Source: a phage. Taken from it: a DNA stretch of 64,000 nt. Position numbers and translations under genes: made by a program. Position 1 is the stretch's first letter. Each line of letters starts with the position of its first letter. The notes under the pieces are model-generated. The model was not told the origin of the DNA and searched no databases. It saw only the letters and a list, made by a program, of their open reading frames with translations. The stretch is from the sequence record PZ019086.1; one strand, given 5' to 3'. This document shows, piece by piece, positions 1,856-44,585 of this stretch.

Positions 1856-2512
1856 ATGGCAGCACCTAGAATATCATTTTCGCCCTCTGATATTCTGTTG
1901 GGTGTTCTAGATCGCTTGTTCAAAGATAACGCTACCGGGAAGGTTCTTGCTTCCCGGGTAGCTGTCGTAATTCTTTTGTTTATAATGGCGATTGTTTGGT
2001 ATAGGGGAGATAGTTTCTTTGAGTACTATAAGCAATCAAAGTATGAAACATACAGTGAAATTATTGAAAAGGAAAGAAATGCACGCTTTGAATCTGTCGC
2101 CCTGGAACAACTCCAGATAGTTCACATATCATCTGAGGCAGACTTTAGTGCGGTGTATTCTTTCCGCCCTAAAAACTTAAACTATTTTGTTGATATTATA
2201 GCATATGAAGGAAAATTACCTTCAACAATAAGTGAAAAATCACTTGGAGGATATCCTGTTGATAAAACTATGGATGAATATACAGTTCATTTAAATGGAC
2301 GTCATTATTATTCCAACTCAAAATTTGCTTTTTTACCGACTAAAAAGCCTACTCCCGAAATAAATTACATGTACAGTTGTCCATATTTCAATTTGGATAA
2401 TATCTATGCTGGAACAATAACCATGTACTGGTATAGAAATGATCATATAAGTAATGACCGCCTTGAATCAATATGTTCTCAGGCGGCCAGAATATTAGGA
2501 AGGGCTAAATAA
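1856..2512 (+). CDS. t: Holin t
   Basis: 218 aa, single N-terminal TM segment then large periplasmic domain; SD AAGGAGG 5 nt upstream of ATG; T4 holin is 218 aa and follows gene 38. Confidence 0.9.
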   Translation: MAAPRISFSPSDILLGVLDRLFKDNATGKVLASRVAVVILLFIMAIVWYRGDSFFEYYKQSKYETYSEIIEKERNARFESVALEQLQIVHISSEADFSAVYSFRPKNLNYFVDIIAYEGKLPSTISEKSLGGYPVDKTMDEYTVHLNGRHYYSNSKFAFLPTKKPTPEINYMYSCPYFNLDNIYAGTITMYWYRNDHISNDRLESICSQAARILGRAK

Positions 2513-2785
2513 TTATTTGTTTGTATACATTTCTAGATATCGATATACACCCTCAAAACCCTCGTTGAATTCGTCGATGAGGGTTTTCTTATCTTCTTGA
2601 GTTAATTCAGAAACAATTTTACGGAATGAATTCTGATTTAACTTTCTACCTTCATGCGTTACTCCAATCTCATTCAGAAATGCAATAAAATTAGCACGAT
2701 TCTCAACAATATCTTCTCTGGAAAATTTAATCAAAATAGACGCAACAGTAATAATTTCACGAACTGTATCAATGTTTTTATTCAT
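2513..2785 (-). CDS. asiA: Anti-sigma-70 factor AsiA
   Basis: 90 aa, sequence MNKNIDTVREIITVASILIKFSRED... matches remembered T4 AsiA; convergent with t. Confidence 0.9.
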   Translation of the reverse strand: MNKNIDTVREIITVASILIKFSREDIVENRANFIAFLNEIGVTHEGRKLNQNSFRKIVSELTQEDKKTLIDEFNEGFEGVYRYLEMYTNK

Positions 2786-2797
2786 TAACTATACCAC

Positions 2798-2950
2798 TCA
2801 ATTAGTTGACTTTATTATAATATCATCAGACACTTGATTTGTAAACTGGTCTGTGTTATTTTCTTCAAAAATTTTTTCTACGAATTCTTTGAACGACTCA
2901 CGTTCCTGAGCTACATTATGCTCGATTACCTTTTCAAGATTATGACTCAT
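2798..2950 (-). CDS. Small acidic ORF (50 aa), not in ORF track; ATGA overlap with arn stop
   Basis: Manual translation MSHNLEKVIEHNVAQERESFKEF...; start overlaps upstream stop (translational coupling pattern). Confidence 0.3.
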   Translation of the reverse strand: MSHNLEKVIEHNVAQERESFKEFVEKIFEENNTDQFTNQVSDDIIIKSTN

Positions 2951-3225
2951 TCGAAATAATCTTCAATTTCGTAATCATGGACATAAAACATTATAGTTTT
3001 TAATACATCATCAATACTTTTTCCTGGAGCTGGAATTACGTAAAAATATCCTGCTTTTGAGAGGTCTTTATAAGTTCCAACCAAGAAATCATTATTCTCG
3101 AGATGCAATTCTTCAACTAATTCATTAACAATTGAATGGTATAAATTTGGTAGAAACTTATATAGCTTTTCTAGAATATCAATTTTGATTGTGTATTGAA
3201 CCACAGACTGAGAATCAATAATCAT
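2947..3225 (-). CDS. arn: Anti-restriction nuclease protein Arn (acidic DNA-mimic type)
   Basis: 92 aa acidic protein at the T4 arn position and length. Confidence 0.6.
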   Translation of the reverse strand: MIIDSQSVVQYTIKIDILEKLYKFLPNLYHSIVNELVEELHLENNDFLVGTYKDLSKAGYFYVIPAPGKSIDDVLKTIMFYVHDYEIEDYFE

Positions 3226-3308
3226 AGACCTTCCCCTTATGTTTCTGTTTGCGATTAGATTCTTTAAACGCTTTCTTTTTATCTTTATGGACAGAAGCTT
3301 TATTAAAA

Positions 3309-3807: not shown

Positions 3808-4268
3808 TAGTAAAGGTCCTCAGAGTAAAGTTCTTTTTCACTACCACCGCGTTCAATACGTACTTGTCCAGCATAAGTTGCAATAATCATTGCTTCTTCA
3901 CGTGTCCAATAATTACTATATTGGTCAATAAACCCTTGATCATCATCACAAACTTGCTGAGTAACTAATTGAGGTTTAACTACATCTAAAACTTCTGCCA
4001 TATCTTTAGAATAATGACGAGCACCTGGAATAACAAGAGTTCGTCCATCTTTTAATTTAAAACGGTTGGCTGCGCAAACAATTCGTCGTTGATACTTTTG
4101 GTTTTCGTCCCAATACGCAGTTTGCCAACAGATTTCAGGAACTTCTTTCAGAATATCTTCTTCTGTGCATTTATAACCATGCGCTTTAAATTTTTCAACA
4201 AGACTTTCTGGAGTTTCACGAGATAAAGGAACATTCAGCATTTTTAAACGATTAATAAATGGGTTCAT
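3807..4268 (-). CDS. Hypothetical early protein (153 aa)
   Basis: ORF in co-directional array, overlapping stop/start with neighbours. Confidence 0.45.
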
Positions 4269-4594
4269 TTAAACCATCCTTTAATACGCTGCCACAAAGT
4301 TTTCTGTTGAGCTTTGTTAACACCAATTGAGCGAATAACTGGTTGAGATTCCTGGAATTCTTTATAATCAGCAAGGTAAATTTCGTAAGCTGAATCCGTA
4401 AAGGAACTTATCGCTGCCATGAAATTATTACGAATACCTACTGGAGCATCTTTACTTTCACGAATAATCATGTATTTGCCAGTCTTAATCTTTACGATGG
4501 TTCCAAGATAAGCTCCATGGTACCAGATATCCCACCCCTCTTGAGTGGGTTCTGCACAACGACGAAGTTCATTGATAATTTCTAACTTGTTCAT
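4265..4594 (-). CDS. Hypothetical early protein (109 aa)
   Basis: ORF in co-directional array. Confidence 0.45.
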
Positions 4595-15391: not shown

Positions 15392-15759
15392 TCAAATTTA
15401 ATGGCTTGAAGAAGACTAATAATTCTCAAGCGACTTCTTTCATCTTTAACCGTAAATGAAAGAGGGTCACCAGATTTCATAGTAATAGTACATTCAAAAT
15501 CAAAATCTTCGGAAACTTCTTTGAAGAAGTCAAATTCTTCATCATAAATTAAAACATTACTCTGACAACTATGAAGAATTTTTCCATCATTTCCAGATGC
15601 TGTACTAATCATCGTAACATTATTACCTTTCATATCTTCAACGATAAATTCGCTTGTAGATATTACGGCATTAATAGAACCATTCCTATAAATAGAAGAA
15701 AGTAGATATTTCTTTTCTTCACCTTCGCGAATGCGATATTTCTTACCAATTTTAAACAT
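15388..15759 (-). CDS. Hypothetical protein (123 aa)
   Basis: ORF with ATGA overlap to neighbour. Confidence 0.45.
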   Translation of the reverse strand: MFKIGKKYRIREGEEKKYLLSSIYRNGSINAVISTSEFIVEDMKGNNVTMISTASGNDGKILHSCQSNVLIYDEEFDFFKEVSEDFDFECTITMKSGDPLSFTVKDERSRLRIISLLQAIKFE

Positions 15760-25819: not shown

Positions 25820-25827
25820 TATTTATA
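25820..25827 (-). promoter_or_regulatory. Late promoter box TATAAATA for soc
   Basis: Exact TATAAATA on minus strand ~30 nt upstream of soc ATG, followed by SD AAGGAG. Confidence 0.6.
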
Positions 25828-32660: not shown

Positions 32661-33509
32661 TTAATCGACTGCTATTGGATGAATAGCATTAAACTTATGA
32701 AACGCTTCTGATTTTTCTTTGCGTGAAACACACATGCGAAGAACCTTTAATGGCTCGTCTTCTTCACCCAACGATTTTCTCTTTTCGATATTCGATGTTT
32801 TCCAACGAGCTTGCTCTGGAAACTCTCTATTGATTTGCTCAAGAGCTCTATTATGTTTTGAATTACTACGAATTGAACTACATCCGCCAGGAGCTTGTGC
32901 TTTTCCAGATACAACCAGATATTTGAACAAGGCCAAATGCGGATAACCTTGATTAATTAAATTGAGAAATGCATACATATCTTCGCATAAATCAATTTTT
33001 CCATACCCAATTTGTTCTGTCGTGAGTTTTCCAAGGTCATACCATGTATTCGTGAATCCATATGAATTTTCACGATAATTACCCCAAGATGAAGTAATTT
33101 TAAAAATTGGTAGACGAGCATGGCCATGATAATACCCACAATCCATGGCATCTTCAACGTATTGAATCAATTCATAGAACTGTTCACGAGTTAATTGATT
33201 AATTTTATCTACGCAGCGACGATCATCTTTCTTTCGCATTGAACTCATACGAATAGTAGTATCATCATCAATCATCCAAATTCGTTGACCTGCATACATA
33301 TCAGTAATTGCTTTACGAGTACCAGCAATTCCATTAACATCATCAGGAATAGTTATAATTTTAGCTCTAGATCCGTAAGCGTCATAATAAGCTTTTTCTT
33401 CATGTTCACGTACTACAATATGAGGTTCATAATCAGTCGGAAACATATCAAGGGCAGAAACTGCCGCTACGCGTTGATAGCTTGGAATTACGAATTGAAT
33501 CATTTCCAT
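32661..33509 (-). CDS. Glycosyltransferase with DxD motif at the beta-gt locus; candidate HMC-DNA beta-glucosyl-alpha-glucose (gentiobiosyl) transferase
   Basis: 282 aa; QRIWMIDDDTTI (DxD); sits between uvsX and gene 42 where T4 has 351 aa beta-gt. Confidence 0.5.
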   Translation of the reverse strand: MEMIQFVIPSYQRVAAVSALDMFPTDYEPHIVVREHEEKAYYDAYGSRAKIITIPDDVNGIAGTRKAITDMYAGQRIWMIDDDTTIRMSSMRKKDDRRCVDKINQLTREQFYELIQYVEDAMDCGYYHGHARLPIFKITSSWGNYRENSYGFTNTWYDLGKLTTEQIGYGKIDLCEDMYAFLNLINQGYPHLALFKYLVVSGKAQAPGGCSSIRSNSKHNRALEQINREFPEQARWKTSNIEKRKSLGEEDEPLKVLRMCVSRKEKSEAFHKFNAIHPIAVD

Positions 33510-39933: not shown

Positions 39934-40620
39934 TTAAAAATCGTGGGTAGAATCAGCTTCAAGAGCTACTACATAATTCGCATGTTCACCTTCAAATTTA
40001 GCAGCGCCTTGTTTACCTTTTGCCCAGAGAAGAAGTTTATAATTTCCTGGTTGCATTTTCATATTTGCCATATTGATAATGAAATTAAATGTATTTTCAC
40101 CATCATAATCACCAAGAGTCAAAGAATATTTAACACGGGTCAAAGCAGAATCTTCCACTTTATTAAAACCGTTAATTACGATTTTACCTTCTTTTACTGT
40201 GATAGCAATTGTATCAATCTGCAGACCACGAGATACACGCAACAGCTGTTGAAGGTCTTCAGCTTTAATTTCAGTAACAACAGATGCTACTGGGAATGGA
40301 ATTGGTTTATTAGGAGCAACTACTGTACTCGGATCGGCTGCTGGCCAAAAAATTGTTGAACGGGCATCAGCAATTTTAATATTACCATCTTCTGACTGGG
40401 AAATTTCTGCATCATCATTAACTAGGGACAGAATACCGAGAAAACCGTTCAAATCGTAAATTGCTACATCAAAATCAATAGTGTCAGAAATATTTGCTTC
40501 CGCATAAGTTGTACCATTAACTGCGCGAGTCATAATAAATTGACCAGATTTAAGCATAATACCAGAGTTAATAGTAGCGAAATTTTTAAGCAGAGCAGTA
40601 GTATCTTTAGACAGTTTCAT
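39934..40620 (-). CDS. 45: Sliding clamp gp45
   Basis: 228 aa as T4 gp45. Confidence 0.85.
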   Translation of the reverse strand: MKLSKDTTALLKNFATINSGIMLKSGQFIMTRAVNGTTYAEANISDTIDFDVAIYDLNGFLGILSLVNDDAEISQSEDGNIKIADARSTIFWPAADPSTVVAPNKPIPFPVASVVTEIKAEDLQQLLRVSRGLQIDTIAITVKEGKIVINGFNKVEDSALTRVKYSLTLGDYDGENTFNFIINMANMKMQPGNYKLLLWAKGKQGAAKFEGEHANYVVALEADSTHDF

Positions 40621-40675: not shown

Positions 40676-41065
40676 TTAACGATTAAAATCAGCAGCAATT
40701 GTTTCAGCAACAATTTGAGCAGCAACAATTAGACGTTCATCTGCATTACCGCAATAATCATCTTCAAGGCGCTCACCACATGAAGTCATAATAAATTTGG
40801 CACCAGCATTTAGAGATTCTGCTGTATGTTTGCGCATCAGTTCAATCCATTTATTACTTACTTCACGATCGATAGCTTCATAATACGCATGACGAGCAGG
40901 TGCAGATTTAATTTTGCTCTGAATAACTTCCATCGCATTATCAGAAAGAGACAAAACCCATGCTCGACGAATTTTATTTTGGTTTTGTGGATTTGATTCA
41001 GAACGCACGTGTTTTGGCTGAATATCTTTTACATCAACAGTATAATTCACCGTAATTTTAGTCAT
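40676..41065 (-). CDS. rpbA: RNA polymerase binding protein RpbA
   Basis: 129 aa as T4 RpbA, adjacent to gene 45. Confidence 0.6.
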
Positions 41066-41074
41066 AATACACCT

Positions 41075-41266
41075 TTAGTCATAATAATCAGTAACAGTCC
41101 AAGCTTCATTTCTGTTGGACATTATTTTCGTATATTCTGATTTAAATGCATTCTTAAGCATAGATTCAGTAACTATATGCTCTTCATTAGAAAAATTATT
41201 TCTCAGAATATATCGTTTTATTTCAGGAATAGTTAATAGATGCTGTCCAGTTGAATATTCTGCCAC
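41075..41266 (-). CDS. Hypothetical protein (63 aa, 45.2 position)
   Basis: ORF. Confidence 0.45.
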   Translation of the reverse strand: MAEYSTGQHLLTIPEIKRYILRNNFSNEEHIVTESMLKNAFKSEYTKIMSNRNEAWTVTDYYD

Positions 41267-41276
41267 AGTTCCTCCG

Positions 41277-41284
41277 TATAAATA
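41277..41284 (+). promoter_or_regulatory. Late promoter box TATAAATA (plus strand) upstream of the HNH endonuclease gene
   Basis: Exact TATAAATA 33 nt upstream of ATG at 41318. Confidence 0.55.
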
Positions 41285-41317
41285 TGTTTATCACTCGCTG
41301 TATCAAAAGGATATGTT

Positions 41318-42034
41318 ATGAATTATAAACTAATTTATGAAAAGTTAATCTCTAATGCTAAATCTCGAAAACTTGATTGCTATACTGAATCTCATCACAT
41401 TATACCACGCTGTTTAAATGGTAGCGATGATGCTTCAAACTTAGTAGATTTAACACCAGAAGAGCACTATGTAGCTCATCAACTTTTAGTAAAAATTTAT
41501 CCTTCTGAACCAAAATTAGTCTATGCTGCTAACATGATGACAGTTTCTACGAAATACGCTAAACGTAATAATAAAACTTTCGGCTGGATTCGTCGTAAAC
41601 TCTGGGAAATAGAAAAGAATAAAGAGTTCTCCCAAGAGACACGAAAGAAAATGTCCGATGCAGTAGCTAATAAAGCAAGACTAACTTGTCCACATTGCGG
41701 TAAGTCTGGATTAAGCGGGAATATGAATCGATGGCATTTTGATAACTGCCCAAATCACCCCAATCCTAAAGTTAGACCGCCAATGTCTAAAGAACACAGA
41801 AATAATATCTCAAACGGGCTTAAAGCAATCGTTCTTGAAGAAACAACCTGCGAATTCTGCGGAATGATAGGCAAGAAATGCGTTATCGCAGCGCATAGAA
41901 ATTTCTGCAAGAAAAATCCAAATGGACGCAAGAAAACTGAAAAGACTGGTACTTGCGTCCATTGTGGTAAAGTTACCACTTTCGGAAATTTATCAAGATG
42001 GCATAATGATAATTGTAAATATAAACCTAGCTAA
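41318..42034 (+). mobile_element. Free-standing HNH homing endonuclease gene with three C-terminal Cys/His zinc-finger-like repeats
   Basis: 238 aa; HNH motif ESHHIIPRCLNGSDDASNLVDLTPEEHYVAH; repeats CPHCGK...RWHFDNC, CEFCG...HRNFC, CVHCGK...RWHNDNC; opposite strand to all neighbours; 3' end overlaps gene 46 stop by 8 bp. Confidence 0.75.
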
Positions 42035-43715
42035 TCTTAGCTAAACTAAATCTACCAACTTTTTCCATTTGAATGTGCTGACCATATTCCTGTGGGTCAT
42101 GGTCTTTATGCGAAATTATGAAGAAGTTGGTATCCTTCAAACCATCTAAAATTTTAGCCACATTTTTAATACCTTCAGCATCAAATGCACCGTCATATAC
42201 TTCATCAAGAAATAAACAACTTATTTTAACACCTGAAACTTTTTCAGCAATATCACGCCAAGTAAATAAAAGAGCAATATCAATTCGCGCTTTTTCACCT
42301 TGACTAAATGAAGCATAACTAAAATCTTCACGACCACGGGATTTAATTGTCTCATTAAATTCTTCATCTAATGTAAACACATAATCCGCTTCCATTATTT
42401 TAAGATAATGGTTAATCTGCTTATTAAATAATGGAATGTACTTTTTAATAATAGCACCTTTAATACCAGAATCTTTGAGCATATCAGTCAAAATTCCTCT
42501 ATGGTATTTTTCCATTACTAAATTAGTTTTTGTCTTAACAATTTTATCAAGTTCTTCTTGAAGCAGTGCTATTTCATCAGCATGATCAATAAACTCAGAT
42601 GATGCTTTTTCTATAGCCGCTTTAACCTTTTTAGCTTTATCTACCGTCGTGATTAGAGATTGCTTTTTATTGCGAATATCATTCGCCAACGTCTGCTGGG
42701 TTTTAATATTATCTCGGTATTCATCAACAAGAACTTTTAAATTATCACGATGTGTTGAAAGCTGTTCAAATGAATGCGTGCATTCAGAAACTTTATCTTT
42801 AATTTTAGAAACAACTTTATCACCGGAACTTAATTGTGACAAACAGGTTGGACATAATCCACCTTCGTGATACATATTAATGACTTTATTATACGAGTCA
42901 ATTTTTGATTTAATTAAAAATGCTTCTTGACCGATTTTATCAAATGCATCAGTCGGGTCTTCATCCAAAACAATATTAACTAATCTTTCATTAGCTTCTT
43001 CTATTTCCGATTTTAACGTTCTAGCTTCTTTTGCCAAATCATCATACATATTCTGCAGACGAGTAAGGTTATCACCAGTTAATTTTTTCTGGCGTTCAAC
43101 GTTATCATTATATATTTTAATTTGTTGGATAATACTATCTTTTTTAACATCAAGCACTTGGTTTTGTGAATTTAATTCACGTATTAGTGCTTTATTAAGC
43201 TTATCCATTTCAGCTAATGTTCCTACCTCAAGCAGGTCTTCCACAAGCTTTCTTCGCGCAGGGGTCGACAAACCCATGAAAGGGGTATACCCTGCTGTAC
43301 CAAGGACAACAATCTGCTTGAAACTGGCATATGACATTCCGATAAGCTGTTCAAATTCTGCTTGGAAATCTTTACTGCTGGCAGATTCATTAAGACGTGT
43401 ACCGTTAACGGTGATTTCGAAAACGTTTGGTTTTTGTCCTCTTTTGATATAGTACTTTTTCTCATCATATTCCATCCACAGTTCAACTAAAAGTTCTTTC
43501 TTATTTGTGCTGTTTATTAATTGGCCTTTCTTTACATCACGGAATGGCTTGCCAAAAAGCCCAAATGTGATGGCTTCTAACATAGTAGACTTACCACCAC
43601 CATTTCGCCCAGTAATAAGAGTTTTTTGAACCTTATCTAATTGAATGTCAACTCCATTTTGACCAACTGACATTATATTTTTATATTTTACTCTATTAAG
43701 TTTAAATGATTTCAT
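42027..43715 (-). CDS. 46: Recombination exonuclease subunit gp46 (SbcC/Rad50-like)
   Basis: 562 aa (T4 560); Walker A GRNGGGKST, long coiled coil, C-terminal ABC signature region. Confidence 0.9.
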   Translation of the reverse strand: MKSFKLNRVKYKNIMSVGQNGVDIQLDKVQKTLITGRNGGGKSTMLEAITFGLFGKPFRDVKKGQLINSTNKKELLVELWMEYDEKKYYIKRGQKPNVFEITVNGTRLNESASSKDFQAEFEQLIGMSYASFKQIVVLGTAGYTPFMGLSTPARRKLVEDLLEVGTLAEMDKLNKALIRELNSQNQVLDVKKDSIIQQIKIYNDNVERQKKLTGDNLTRLQNMYDDLAKEARTLKSEIEEANERLVNIVLDEDPTDAFDKIGQEAFLIKSKIDSYNKVINMYHEGGLCPTCLSQLSSGDKVVSKIKDKVSECTHSFEQLSTHRDNLKVLVDEYRDNIKTQQTLANDIRNKKQSLITTVDKAKKVKAAIEKASSEFIDHADEIALLQEELDKIVKTKTNLVMEKYHRGILTDMLKDSGIKGAIIKKYIPLFNKQINHYLKIMEADYVFTLDEEFNETIKSRGREDFSYASFSQGEKARIDIALLFTWRDIAEKVSGVKISCLFLDEVYDGAFDAEGIKNVAKILDGLKDTNFFIISHKDHDPQEYGQHIQMEKVGRFSLAKIS

Positions 43716-43730
43716 TTTGTATCCAATTGT

Positions 43731-44585
43731 TCACAATGAAGAAAATTCTTTAACTAAAGCCTGTAATGAAGCCTCTATTGGATATCCATTCTTAACTAAC
43801 ATTTTCCTAAACATCACATGTTTAGGACGATTATATGATATCCACAATTCATACAATTTATCTTTATTATCCCAATGATAGCCTTTTCGTCGAGATGCTA
43901 TATGAGCTTTTCTAATCTCCGGATTTTTCCAACTAGCGGCTACTGAATTTGATATAGCTATTTTATATTCAGGTTTTGATAAAGCAACACGAACAGCCTT
44001 TTGGTGTTTAATTTTATTTTCTTCGTTATTAAACCATTCCCTTGAAGCCATTGAAATTTTTTGTTTTGTTTTAAAATTATTTAATCTTTCTTTGTTATCT
44101 TTCCTATTTTTTGCTACTGAAAAGTATTTTAATGCTCTTTCTCTAGCAGCATTTCTATTTTGTGGATTTGAATAATATTGTTGAAGCCTTTTTGATATTG
44201 TGTCACTTACATCTTGTTTTATAAAACTATATTCAGCAGCTATTAAATCAACTTCGGCTAAAGATAAATTTTTATATGTTTTTCCTGACATCATTCTATT
44301 TAAAGCATTTAGCATTTTTCCATTTTTACCTTTTGCTAATAAGAAATGTGCTTTAAAATGATTAAAATGACTTAAATTAACTAAATTCCATGTAGATTTT
44401 AAATATTCAGGAAATATTGATTTAGGAAGCACATGGTGTGCTTCCGTTTTACCTGGAGTTTTAACAGTTGAATTCATAGAAATAAAATTAATGTAAGACT
44501 TGGCGTCTTCTTCACTCAACGCTAATTTTTCAACTAATTCCTTTATTAAAAATTCATCATTAATGTCAAGTTTAAAATTCTTCAC
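43731..44585 (-). mobile_element. Second HNH-like nuclease ORF with NUMOD-like C-terminal repeats
   Basis: 284 aa; EAHHVLPKS...NLVNLSHFNHFKAH; repeated basic helix motifs (IRKAHIASRRK, HQKAVRVALSK); inserted between 46 and 47. Confidence 0.5.

Follow-up and report, generated by a model that had tools for sequence, protein, structure and literature searches.

That T-even phages carry free-standing HNH endonucleases of the mob type is textbook knowledge. Members of the mob family share an N-terminal HNH domain, to which each protein adds a specific C-terminal domain, and for MobE at nrdB a conserved binding block has been described together with polymorphic flanks that protect the carrier (PMC2790892). 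In I-TevIII, fingers of the form CX2CX12-13HX3C bind zinc and are required for both DNA binding and cleavage (PMC1865063). Phage RB32 was listed with two mob-like HNH genes by Petrov et al. 2010 (PMC2993671). The gene described here corresponds to RB32ORF054w, which the RB32 annotation calls a 'putative site-specific intron-like DNA endonuclease, similar to mobB'; RefSeq annotates the gene as 'homing endonuclease', and the record of phage SYGD1, the closest to the DNA that we analysed, leaves the ORF unannotated. The gene itself is already known: it has been catalogued in GenBank since RB32 was sequenced, it falls into a well-known class, and its activity is putative. In searching the literature we came across neither a paper on an endonuclease at this site, between genes 45.2 and 46, nor experimental work on this gene.

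We analysed a stretch of 64,000 nucleotides (record PZ019086.1; hereafter the window), a T4-like (Tequatrovirus) segment whose nearest record is phage SYGD1, with 98.9% identity over 2.4 kb. A first-pass annotation had reported a plus-strand ORF of 238 aa amid minus-strand genes, and such an ORF was found at 41318-42034, surrounded by genes 45, rpbA, 45.2 and 46 on the minus strand. The span given for it ended correctly at 42034, whereas its start at 41277 turned out to be that of the promoter box and not of the ORF. The same annotation had placed an exact TATAAATA 33 nt upstream of the ORF and an 8-bp overlap of its 3' end with the gene 46 stop, and both were recovered. The features of the locus are as follows.

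39934-40620, minus strand: gene 45.
40676-41065, minus strand: rpbA, by Pfam match.
41075-41266, minus strand: gene 45.2 (Pfam Gp45_2, E 5e-35), with a GTG start in carriers of the endonuclease gene.
41261-42046: segment without a counterpart in T4, where 72 bp take the place of the 786 bp found here; delimited by blastn breakpoints.
41277-41284, plus strand: T4-type late promoter box TATAAATA, an exact match 33 nt before the ATG of the endonuclease gene; putative promoter.
41307-41311, plus strand: Shine-Dalgarno AAGGA, 6 nt before the same ATG, as read from the sequence.
41318-42034, plus strand: the 45.2/46 free-standing HNH homing endonuclease gene (HEG; RB32ORF054w), with an ATG start and 238 aa plus stop.
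41318-41617, plus strand: predicted MobE-type HNH catalytic domain, aa 1-100, from MobE identity, invariant residues and the AF2 model.
41687-41749, plus strand: zinc finger 1 (C124/C127/H140/C144), CX2CX12HX3C, a beta-hairpin plus helix in the model.
41849-41908, plus strand: zinc finger 2 (C178/C181/H193/C197), CX2CX11HX3C, aligning with I-TevIII finger 1.
41954-42016, plus strand: zinc finger 3 (C213/C216/H229/C233), the family-wide C-terminal finger, aligning with I-TevIII finger 2.
42027-42034: tail-to-tail overlap of the HEG and gene 46, 8 bp, with the HEG stop at 42032-42034 and the gene 46 stop at 42027-42029 (minus strand).
42027-43715, minus strand: gene 46, encoding a Rad50/SbcC-like subunit of a recombination nuclease (562 aa) whose C-terminal tail is altered.
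42047-42250, minus strand: HEG-linked allele of the gene 46 3' end (gp46 residues ~489-557), likely to contain the target and the immunity polymorphisms.

The breakpoints at 41260 and 42047 were identical against seven HEG-less phages (T4, RB14, PYps55T, SHFML-26, AndreasVesalius, pSs-1 and slur14), which have 72 bp in place of the 786 bp here; the boundaries were set by blastn, as a global MAFFT alignment of the window with T4 misplaces the right junction. The replaced DNA covers the start of gene 45.2, which begins GTG-Ala here and has ATG in its place in non-carriers; at the other edge it covers the final codons of gene 46, such that gp46 ends in FSLAKIS here versus FTVMV in T4 and the non-carriers. 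That T4 has no gene in this gap, as the first-pass annotation had stated, is correct: a geneless spacer of 55 bp separates the end of gene 45.2 at 33246 from the start of gene 46 at 33302. Among the phage records matching a 2.4-kb query, 60 of 656 span the insert, and a query with the T4 empty site returned 599 records, most of them with an uninterrupted spacer. Carriers thus amount to about 60 of about 600-660 Tequatrovirus records, or about one in ten. The proposal that the gene was inserted agrees with this distribution, in which ~60 of ~650 relatives carry it with clean boundaries against a T4-like empty site.

Judged by its sequence, the ORF belongs to the 'mob' class of free-standing homing endonuclease genes known from T4. 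The strings ESHHIIPRC and NLVDLTPEEHYVAH, on which the first-pass annotation had based its HNH motif, are both present, and the family assignment was upheld by a match to PHROG 655 'homing endonuclease' (E 1.2e-68) and by 43% identity of the N-terminal ~115-120 aa to T4 MobE residues 1-119 (E 2e-29). Pfam HNH (PF01844) by itself stayed below its cut-off of 21.4 bits (16.9 bits, E 0.007); T4 MobE passes barely, with 21.5 bits, so within this profile the entire mob clade forms a divergent branch. A metagenome protein set yielded 2304 homologues at E <= 1e-3, and in an alignment of 38 sequences drawn from these, E24, H26, H27, P30, G35, N41, H50 and H54 were invariant. The AF2 model built from the same alignment reached an overall pLDDT of 91. 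Its HNH core (strands 24-27 and 42-45, helix 47-60; pLDDT ~95) has a beta-beta-alpha fold, in which the conserved residues that characterize the HNH superfamily, the general-base His (H26/H27), the Asn (N41) and the metal-binding His (H50/H54), sit on the beta-hairpin plus helix. Foldseek with the full model against the PDB gave weak matches to CTCF/TRAF zinc-finger arrays (E at least 0.02) and to HNH domains (E ~1), and a sequence search of the PDB returned nothing useful, with best E-values of 0.17-0.29. Kinship with IscB was considered and rejected, the NCBIfam match being partial, confined to the HNH region and far under the cut-off.

The C-terminal ~140 residues are predicted, from sequence comparison and the model, to form an extended DNA-binding arm of two short helices and three I-TevIII-type CCHC fingers. 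The first-pass annotation had described three tandem Cys/His units with an RWH-x-DNC motif. The three units were confirmed, and their likeness to zinc-finger DNA-binding modules held, as they are of the same type as the I-TevIII fingers (PMC1865063); RWHxDNC, however, occurs in fingers 1 and 3 only, finger 2 having AAHRNFC instead, and the units are separated by linkers of 33 and 15 residues rather than being strictly tandem. We compared the fingers with I-TevIII in two versions, one defective (T4) and one full-length (RB7). Finger 1 showed 50% identity to I-TevIII finger 2 over 28 aa, and fingers 2-3 matched the pair of I-TevIII fingers without a change of order, with 38-40% identity over 63-65 aa. 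The arm also matched PHROG 12324 (1.7e-8) and PHROG 27406 (7e-11), and all four ligands of finger 3 were invariant in the 38 relatives. In the AF2 model, three beta-hairpin-plus-helix fingers follow the HNH core, with one helix ahead of each. NUMOD3 (PF07460) had no match in the HEG protein at E <= 0.1; it is present in many relatives (for example P0029, 7.7e-18), and HEG helices 106-117 and 158-170 align with the columns that hold NUMOD3 repeats in those proteins. Together, the MobE-type N-terminus and the I-TevIII-like fingers suggest that a MobE-type catalytic head has been joined to an I-TevIII-type finger arm. Such domain shuffling has already been described for these enzymes.

Copies were also found in other genera.

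FL31 (Mosigvirus): 57% aa identity, same site, convergent with gene 46.
EC-F1 (Pseudotevenvirus): 43% aa identity, same site, convergent with gene 46.
Roth67 (Klebsiella phage): 64% aa identity, with an in-frame stop at W90, same site, convergent with gene 46.
MHG19 (Yersinia phage): 63% aa identity; the protein match overlaps an annotated recombination endonuclease (gene 46).

The relatives at the gene 46 site share the three-finger architecture, MHG19 being known from its protein match and the overlap alone, and the convergent overlap with gene 46 measures 4-23 bp in FL31, EC-F1 and Roth67. The internal stop of the Roth67 copy is as expected from the decay cycle of homing endonucleases.

Regarding transcription, TATAAATA occurs three times in the 64-kb window, against 9.9 +/- 3.0 copies expected from shuffles, and the octamer is therefore depleted; a second copy, at 25820 on the minus strand, likewise lies 31 nt before an ORF. 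In T4 late promoters, TATAAATA occupies -10 and drives transcription dependent on gp55, gp33 and gp45. Given that TATAAATA is avoided in the window, a copy so well placed ahead of the HEG is unlikely to be idle. Exact TATAAATA boxes also precede the Roth67 copy (-42) and the FL31 copy (-53), in both of which the leader GTTTATCA...GTATCA is conserved; EC-F1, one of the three more distant copies checked, has neither this leader nor an exact TATAAATA upstream. An RNA structure that could hide the ribosome-binding site was sought in the 5' leader of the HEG, and none was significant (z = -1.15). An operator in the style of I-TevI was sought by comparing the promoter and leader with the target region of T4 or RB14, and no similarity was detected: the top scores of 9 and 13 compare with shuffled sequences that averaged ~10 and reached 17-18 at most. 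We counted the failed operator match and the EC-F1 copy without an exact TATAAATA against a homing function.

The adjoining end of gene 46 gave the most informative result. At 42047-42250, carriers diverge from non-carriers by 16-30% per 100 bp, against 1-4% elsewhere. All 26 fixed differences in homologous DNA fall at 42041-42218, and none was found left of 41260 or right of 42218 among the carriers and non-carriers compared. Database-wide, 59-60 records hold the HEG together with this allele, the best HEG-less record reaches 79.9% identity in the patch, and nothing lies between 80% and 90%. The carrier allele is thus at least 20% diverged from all HEG-less alleles, within DNA that is otherwise 95-99% identical; within Tequatrovirus the patch diverges as much (~22%) as it does from genus to genus, in contrast to 98-99% identity over the adjoining 300 nt. 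The first-pass annotation had put forward localized gene conversion around the 45-46 junction, to which this fully linked haplotype at the 3' end of gene 46 is a plausible counterpart.

The patch encodes the Walker B (D504/E505) and the H-loop (H536) of gp46, which we placed by alignment to Rad50 (3qf7). Within it, a 45-bp block, which encodes IISHKDHDPQEYGQH, hardly varies in any of the phages; fixed differences cluster on either side of it, at 42041-42074 and 42120-42135. This pattern resembles that of MobE at nrdB, from which we infer that the HEG targets the 3' end of gene 46 and that carriers would owe self-immunity to the linked allele. The absence of a linked tract on the 45.2 side further supports selection on the target over simple hitch-hiking. 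The HEG-less phages themselves fall into two patch haplotypes ~22% apart, a T4/slur14 type and an RB14 type, indicating that the patch is hypervariable for reasons that need not all involve the HEG; its variation may reflect repeated cycles of invasion and escape, or pressures of another kind. Import of the carrier tail from the sampled genera was considered and rejected, since none is closer to it (68-72% DNA identity for FL31 and Roth67, 50% for EC-F1) than T4 is (78%). In the protein, carriers and Roth67 have the Walker B stretch CLFLDEVYDGAFDAEGIKNV in common.

Collectively, we consider it probable that the HEG is a mob-class gene that homes into the 3' end of gene 46. Late in infection, the HEG would be transcribed from a TATAAATA promoter of its own, antisense to the early/middle 46-45.2-rpbA-45 unit. 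When a HEG-less T4-like phage infects the same cell, the protein would bind the gene 46 3' end of that partner, at the Walker B/H-loop codons, and nick or cut it there; repair by recombination off the carrier genome would then give the recipient both the HEG and the ~200 bp of gene 46 next to it. Carriers would be protected because their own ~200 bp of gene 46 end are heavily diverged. The complete linkage between the HEG and the diverged ~200-bp tract is a population footprint consistent with nuclease-dependent inheritance and co-conversion of the flank. Late transcription, catalysis, a nick as opposed to a double-strand break, the exact target and super-Mendelian inheritance are the parts of this proposal that we infer.

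Alternatively, the HEG could be an old polymorphism passed on vertically and since deleted from most lineages, with a nuclease that is inactive or rarely used and a gene 46 tail that is an old linked haplotype. The diversity of the HEG among carriers (1.8-3.3%) is about that of the flanks, which gives no sign of a recent sweep and fits an old linked polymorphism equally well; moreover, same-site copies occur in several genera with identities (43-64%) that roughly track genus divergence, and the Roth67 copy is decaying. Nevertheless, we regard this history as unlikely on four counts. In all five carriers compared (the window, RB32, SYGD1, Paracelsus and Pu-Krd-SF4), the ORF is intact and free of stops; SYGD1 is nearly identical to the window and the other carriers differ from one another and from the window by 7-24 nt, with 13-24 nt among the four more distant carriers. 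The changes are synonymous in ~90% of the codons affected (for example, 21 against 3 non-synonymous). Such a bias indicates purifying selection on the protein, which, together with the invariant catalytic residues, argues for a working enzyme. The T4 spacer carries on the minus strand a MotA-box-like TGCTTTA followed, after 12 nt, by TATAAT, and this candidate promoter marks it as a well-formed spacer and not a deletion scar. Outside the insert, divergence between carriers and non-carriers is 1-4% per 100 bp, approximately that among carriers, so that the flanking DNA does not group the carriers as a clade. Finally, the HEG and the patch are completely linked, even though beyond ~200 bp recombination has homogenized everything.

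A second alternative holds that the HEG is a domesticated competition or exclusion nuclease, whose cutting of gene 46 in relatives benefits the host phage and not the gene alone. Purifying selection on the HEG would fit this idea equally, as would a second, independent HNH gene at the opposite end of gene 46, an arrangement like the 'HEG islands' (PMC10448857). Each of the two HNH genes has a small linked haplotype patch at the adjoining end of gene 46, and their occurrence in the databases is independent of one another. The sequence data, however, fit ordinary homing just as well, and the two readings are not exclusive; the fact that ~10% of relatives are carriers argues against a large fitness benefit, and PADLOC returned a generic homing-endonuclease match only. 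An exclusion function in place of homing therefore seems improbable to us.

We also entertained a broader proposal built on homing. In the family of the HEG, CCHC fingers and NUMOD3 helices may swap for one another, giving one to three fingers, and the three-finger form may be specialized to read the Walker B/H-loop coding DNA of gene 46. The gene 46 product processes the breaks on which homing depends, and the HEG and the second HNH gene could mobilize whole gene 46 alleles between genera as a cassette. Taken jointly, a modular finger array on a nickase, specialization to gene 46 and cassette mobilization with the second HNH gene form a doubtful combination.

Much less credible is a zinc-finger DNA-binding regulator with a vestigial nuclease, such as a late repressor or an antisense regulator of the 46/45.2 region. 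The three fingers are of a DNA-binding type, the gene is antisense to the early/middle operon with no plus-strand terminator before 44425, and I-TevI doubles as a repressor (PMC2988022). Against this, the HNH core residues are all invariant in the 38-sequence alignment, few nonsynonymous changes separate the carriers, the comparison of the promoter and leader with the T4 or RB14 target region detected no operator-like similarity, and 90% of close relatives do without the HEG. A chance ORF, for which nothing speaks beyond the AT-rich sequence context, can practically be dismissed in view of the 2304 homologues, the synonymous bias, the confident structure model and the presence of a ribosome-binding site and promoter box.

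With homing into gene 46 as the preferred explanation, the conceptual gain is small, and the main value of the analysis is a target prediction: the last ~200 bp of gene 46 in HEG-less phages, which contain the Walker B/H-loop codons. Carriers can be recognized by the 26 fixed differences in the end of gene 46. The HEG would also provide a second example, beside I-TevIII, of CCHC fingers used for recognition of glucosyl-hydroxymethylcytosine DNA, and the locus shows why the gp46 C-terminus is mosaic among otherwise near-identical T4-like phages.

Among described systems, MobE is similar to the HEG in being free-standing, in lying in a spacer beside a conserved gene of essential function, and in the clustering of carrier/non-carrier polymorphisms in the neighbouring gene (Wilson & Edgell 2009, PMC2790892). 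Furthermore, T4 nrdB.1, directly downstream of mobE, encodes the C-terminal finger of the family, CPHC...RWHxDxCK. The two differ in site (45.2/46 for the HEG, nrdA/nrdB for MobE) and in transcription: MobE has no promoter of its own and is co-transcribed with nrdA, with an internal terminator (PMC2790892), whereas the HEG lies on the strand opposite to its neighbours behind its own TATAAATA box. In the HEG, three fingers replace most NUMOD3 repeats. Nicking by MobE has been mapped in vivo, while the HEG is known from sequence alone.

I-TevIII of phage RB3 (Robbins et al. 2007, PMC1865063) has the same finger order and ligand spacing, CX2CX12-13HX3C, and its mutated catalytic residues H26, H27, N39 and H48 occupy almost the same positions as H26, H27, N41 and H50 of the HEG, even though BLASTP detected no similarity between the two HNH domains. 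Unlike the free-standing, three-fingered HEG, I-TevIII resides inside the nrdB group I intron, has two fingers, acts as a dimer and leaves 2-nt 3' overhangs. RB32ORF054w and the ~60 Tequatrovirus copies in GenBank are the same gene at the same site, 97-99% identical, and nothing material sets the HEG apart from them. Another antisense gene is T4 segD, which has no promoter. The T4 mob genes are mostly promoter-less cassettes co-oriented with their neighbours (PMC2988022), whereas the HEG is antisense and preceded by a late-promoter box. As in the HEG islands of Barth et al. 2023, which surround essential genes, a concept developed on the T5orf172 and IPA-HNH genes of ICP1-like phages (PMC10448857), HNH genes here bracket gene 46 on both sides.

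A second HNH homing endonuclease gene (HEG) was located in the gap between gene 46 and 46.1. The first, mob-type HEG lies on the other side, between 45.2 and 46, so that gene 46 has an HEG at either end. The coordinates of the second gene, together with those of a small divergent segment within gene 46, were as follows.

Window 43731-44585, minus strand: the second HEG, with a product of 284 aa that matches PHROG 655 at E 8e-45.
Window 43652-43700 (gene 46, 5′ end): small haplotype patch with ~13 differences across 50 bp.

The products of the two HEGs appeared unrelated, with only 36% identity over 55 aa, and the occurrence of the second was independent of that of the first; the second was found in SYGD1 and SHFML-26 and was absent from T4, RB32 and RB14. 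The 5′ patch distinguished carriers of the second HEG from most phages without it, although T4, despite having no second HEG, possesses nearly all of the carrier haplotype at this position. At the 3′ end of gene 46, we compared the equivalents of window 42047-42250 in T4 and other phages lacking the first HEG (loci L001 and L006-L011), revealing two tail haplotypes among HEG-less Tequatroviruses, a T4/slur14 type and an RB14 type, that were ~22% apart and lay beside DNA with 98-99% identity. Earlier cycles of invasion and loss may have generated these two haplotypes.

Outside Tequatrovirus, a copy of the first HEG was identified at the same site in Klebsiella phage Roth67.

Roth67 locus (L013) 2501-3235: same-site copy of the first HEG.

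In this copy, the conserved W90 is replaced by an in-frame stop and the annotation is split into two ORFs, indicating that the gene is decaying. Roth67 gp46 and the Tequatrovirus carriers also have the Walker B stretch CLFLDEVYDGAFDAEGIKNV in common.

The T4 46/45.2 spacer was compared with window 41261-41317, and the late promoter box TATAAATA was mapped; besides the copy at 41277-41284 (plus strand), only two boxes were present in the window.

T4 locus (L001) 4248-4316: 46/45.2 spacer.
Window 25820-25827, minus strand: TATAAATA, preceding an 81-aa ORF on the same strand (25789-25544) by 31 nt.
Window 15687-15694, plus strand: TATAAATA, within a minus-strand ORF; no plus-strand ORF of at least 50 aa was found after it.

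The minus strand of the T4 spacer contains a MotA-box-like TGCTTTA-12 nt-TATAAT, and an inverted repeat is also present. Carriers of the first HEG have lost this arrangement, and their 45.2 begins with GTG, with one Ala added. An antisense MotA-box-like site, ATTGCTTTA-N13-TATTAT, occurs within the first HEG at ~41829.

The first HEG product was also matched to a T4 locus.

T4 139716-140416 (L016 417-1117): mobE and nrdB.1.

The tblastn match of the window protein to T4 spans mobE and then nrdB.1, with 35% identity along its full length, and the C-terminal finger of its family, CPHCGKKVNKGNALRWHYDKCK, is encoded in nrdB.1 (83 aa). The 141-aa MobE of the annotation and nrdB.1 appear to be two parts of a single mob gene.
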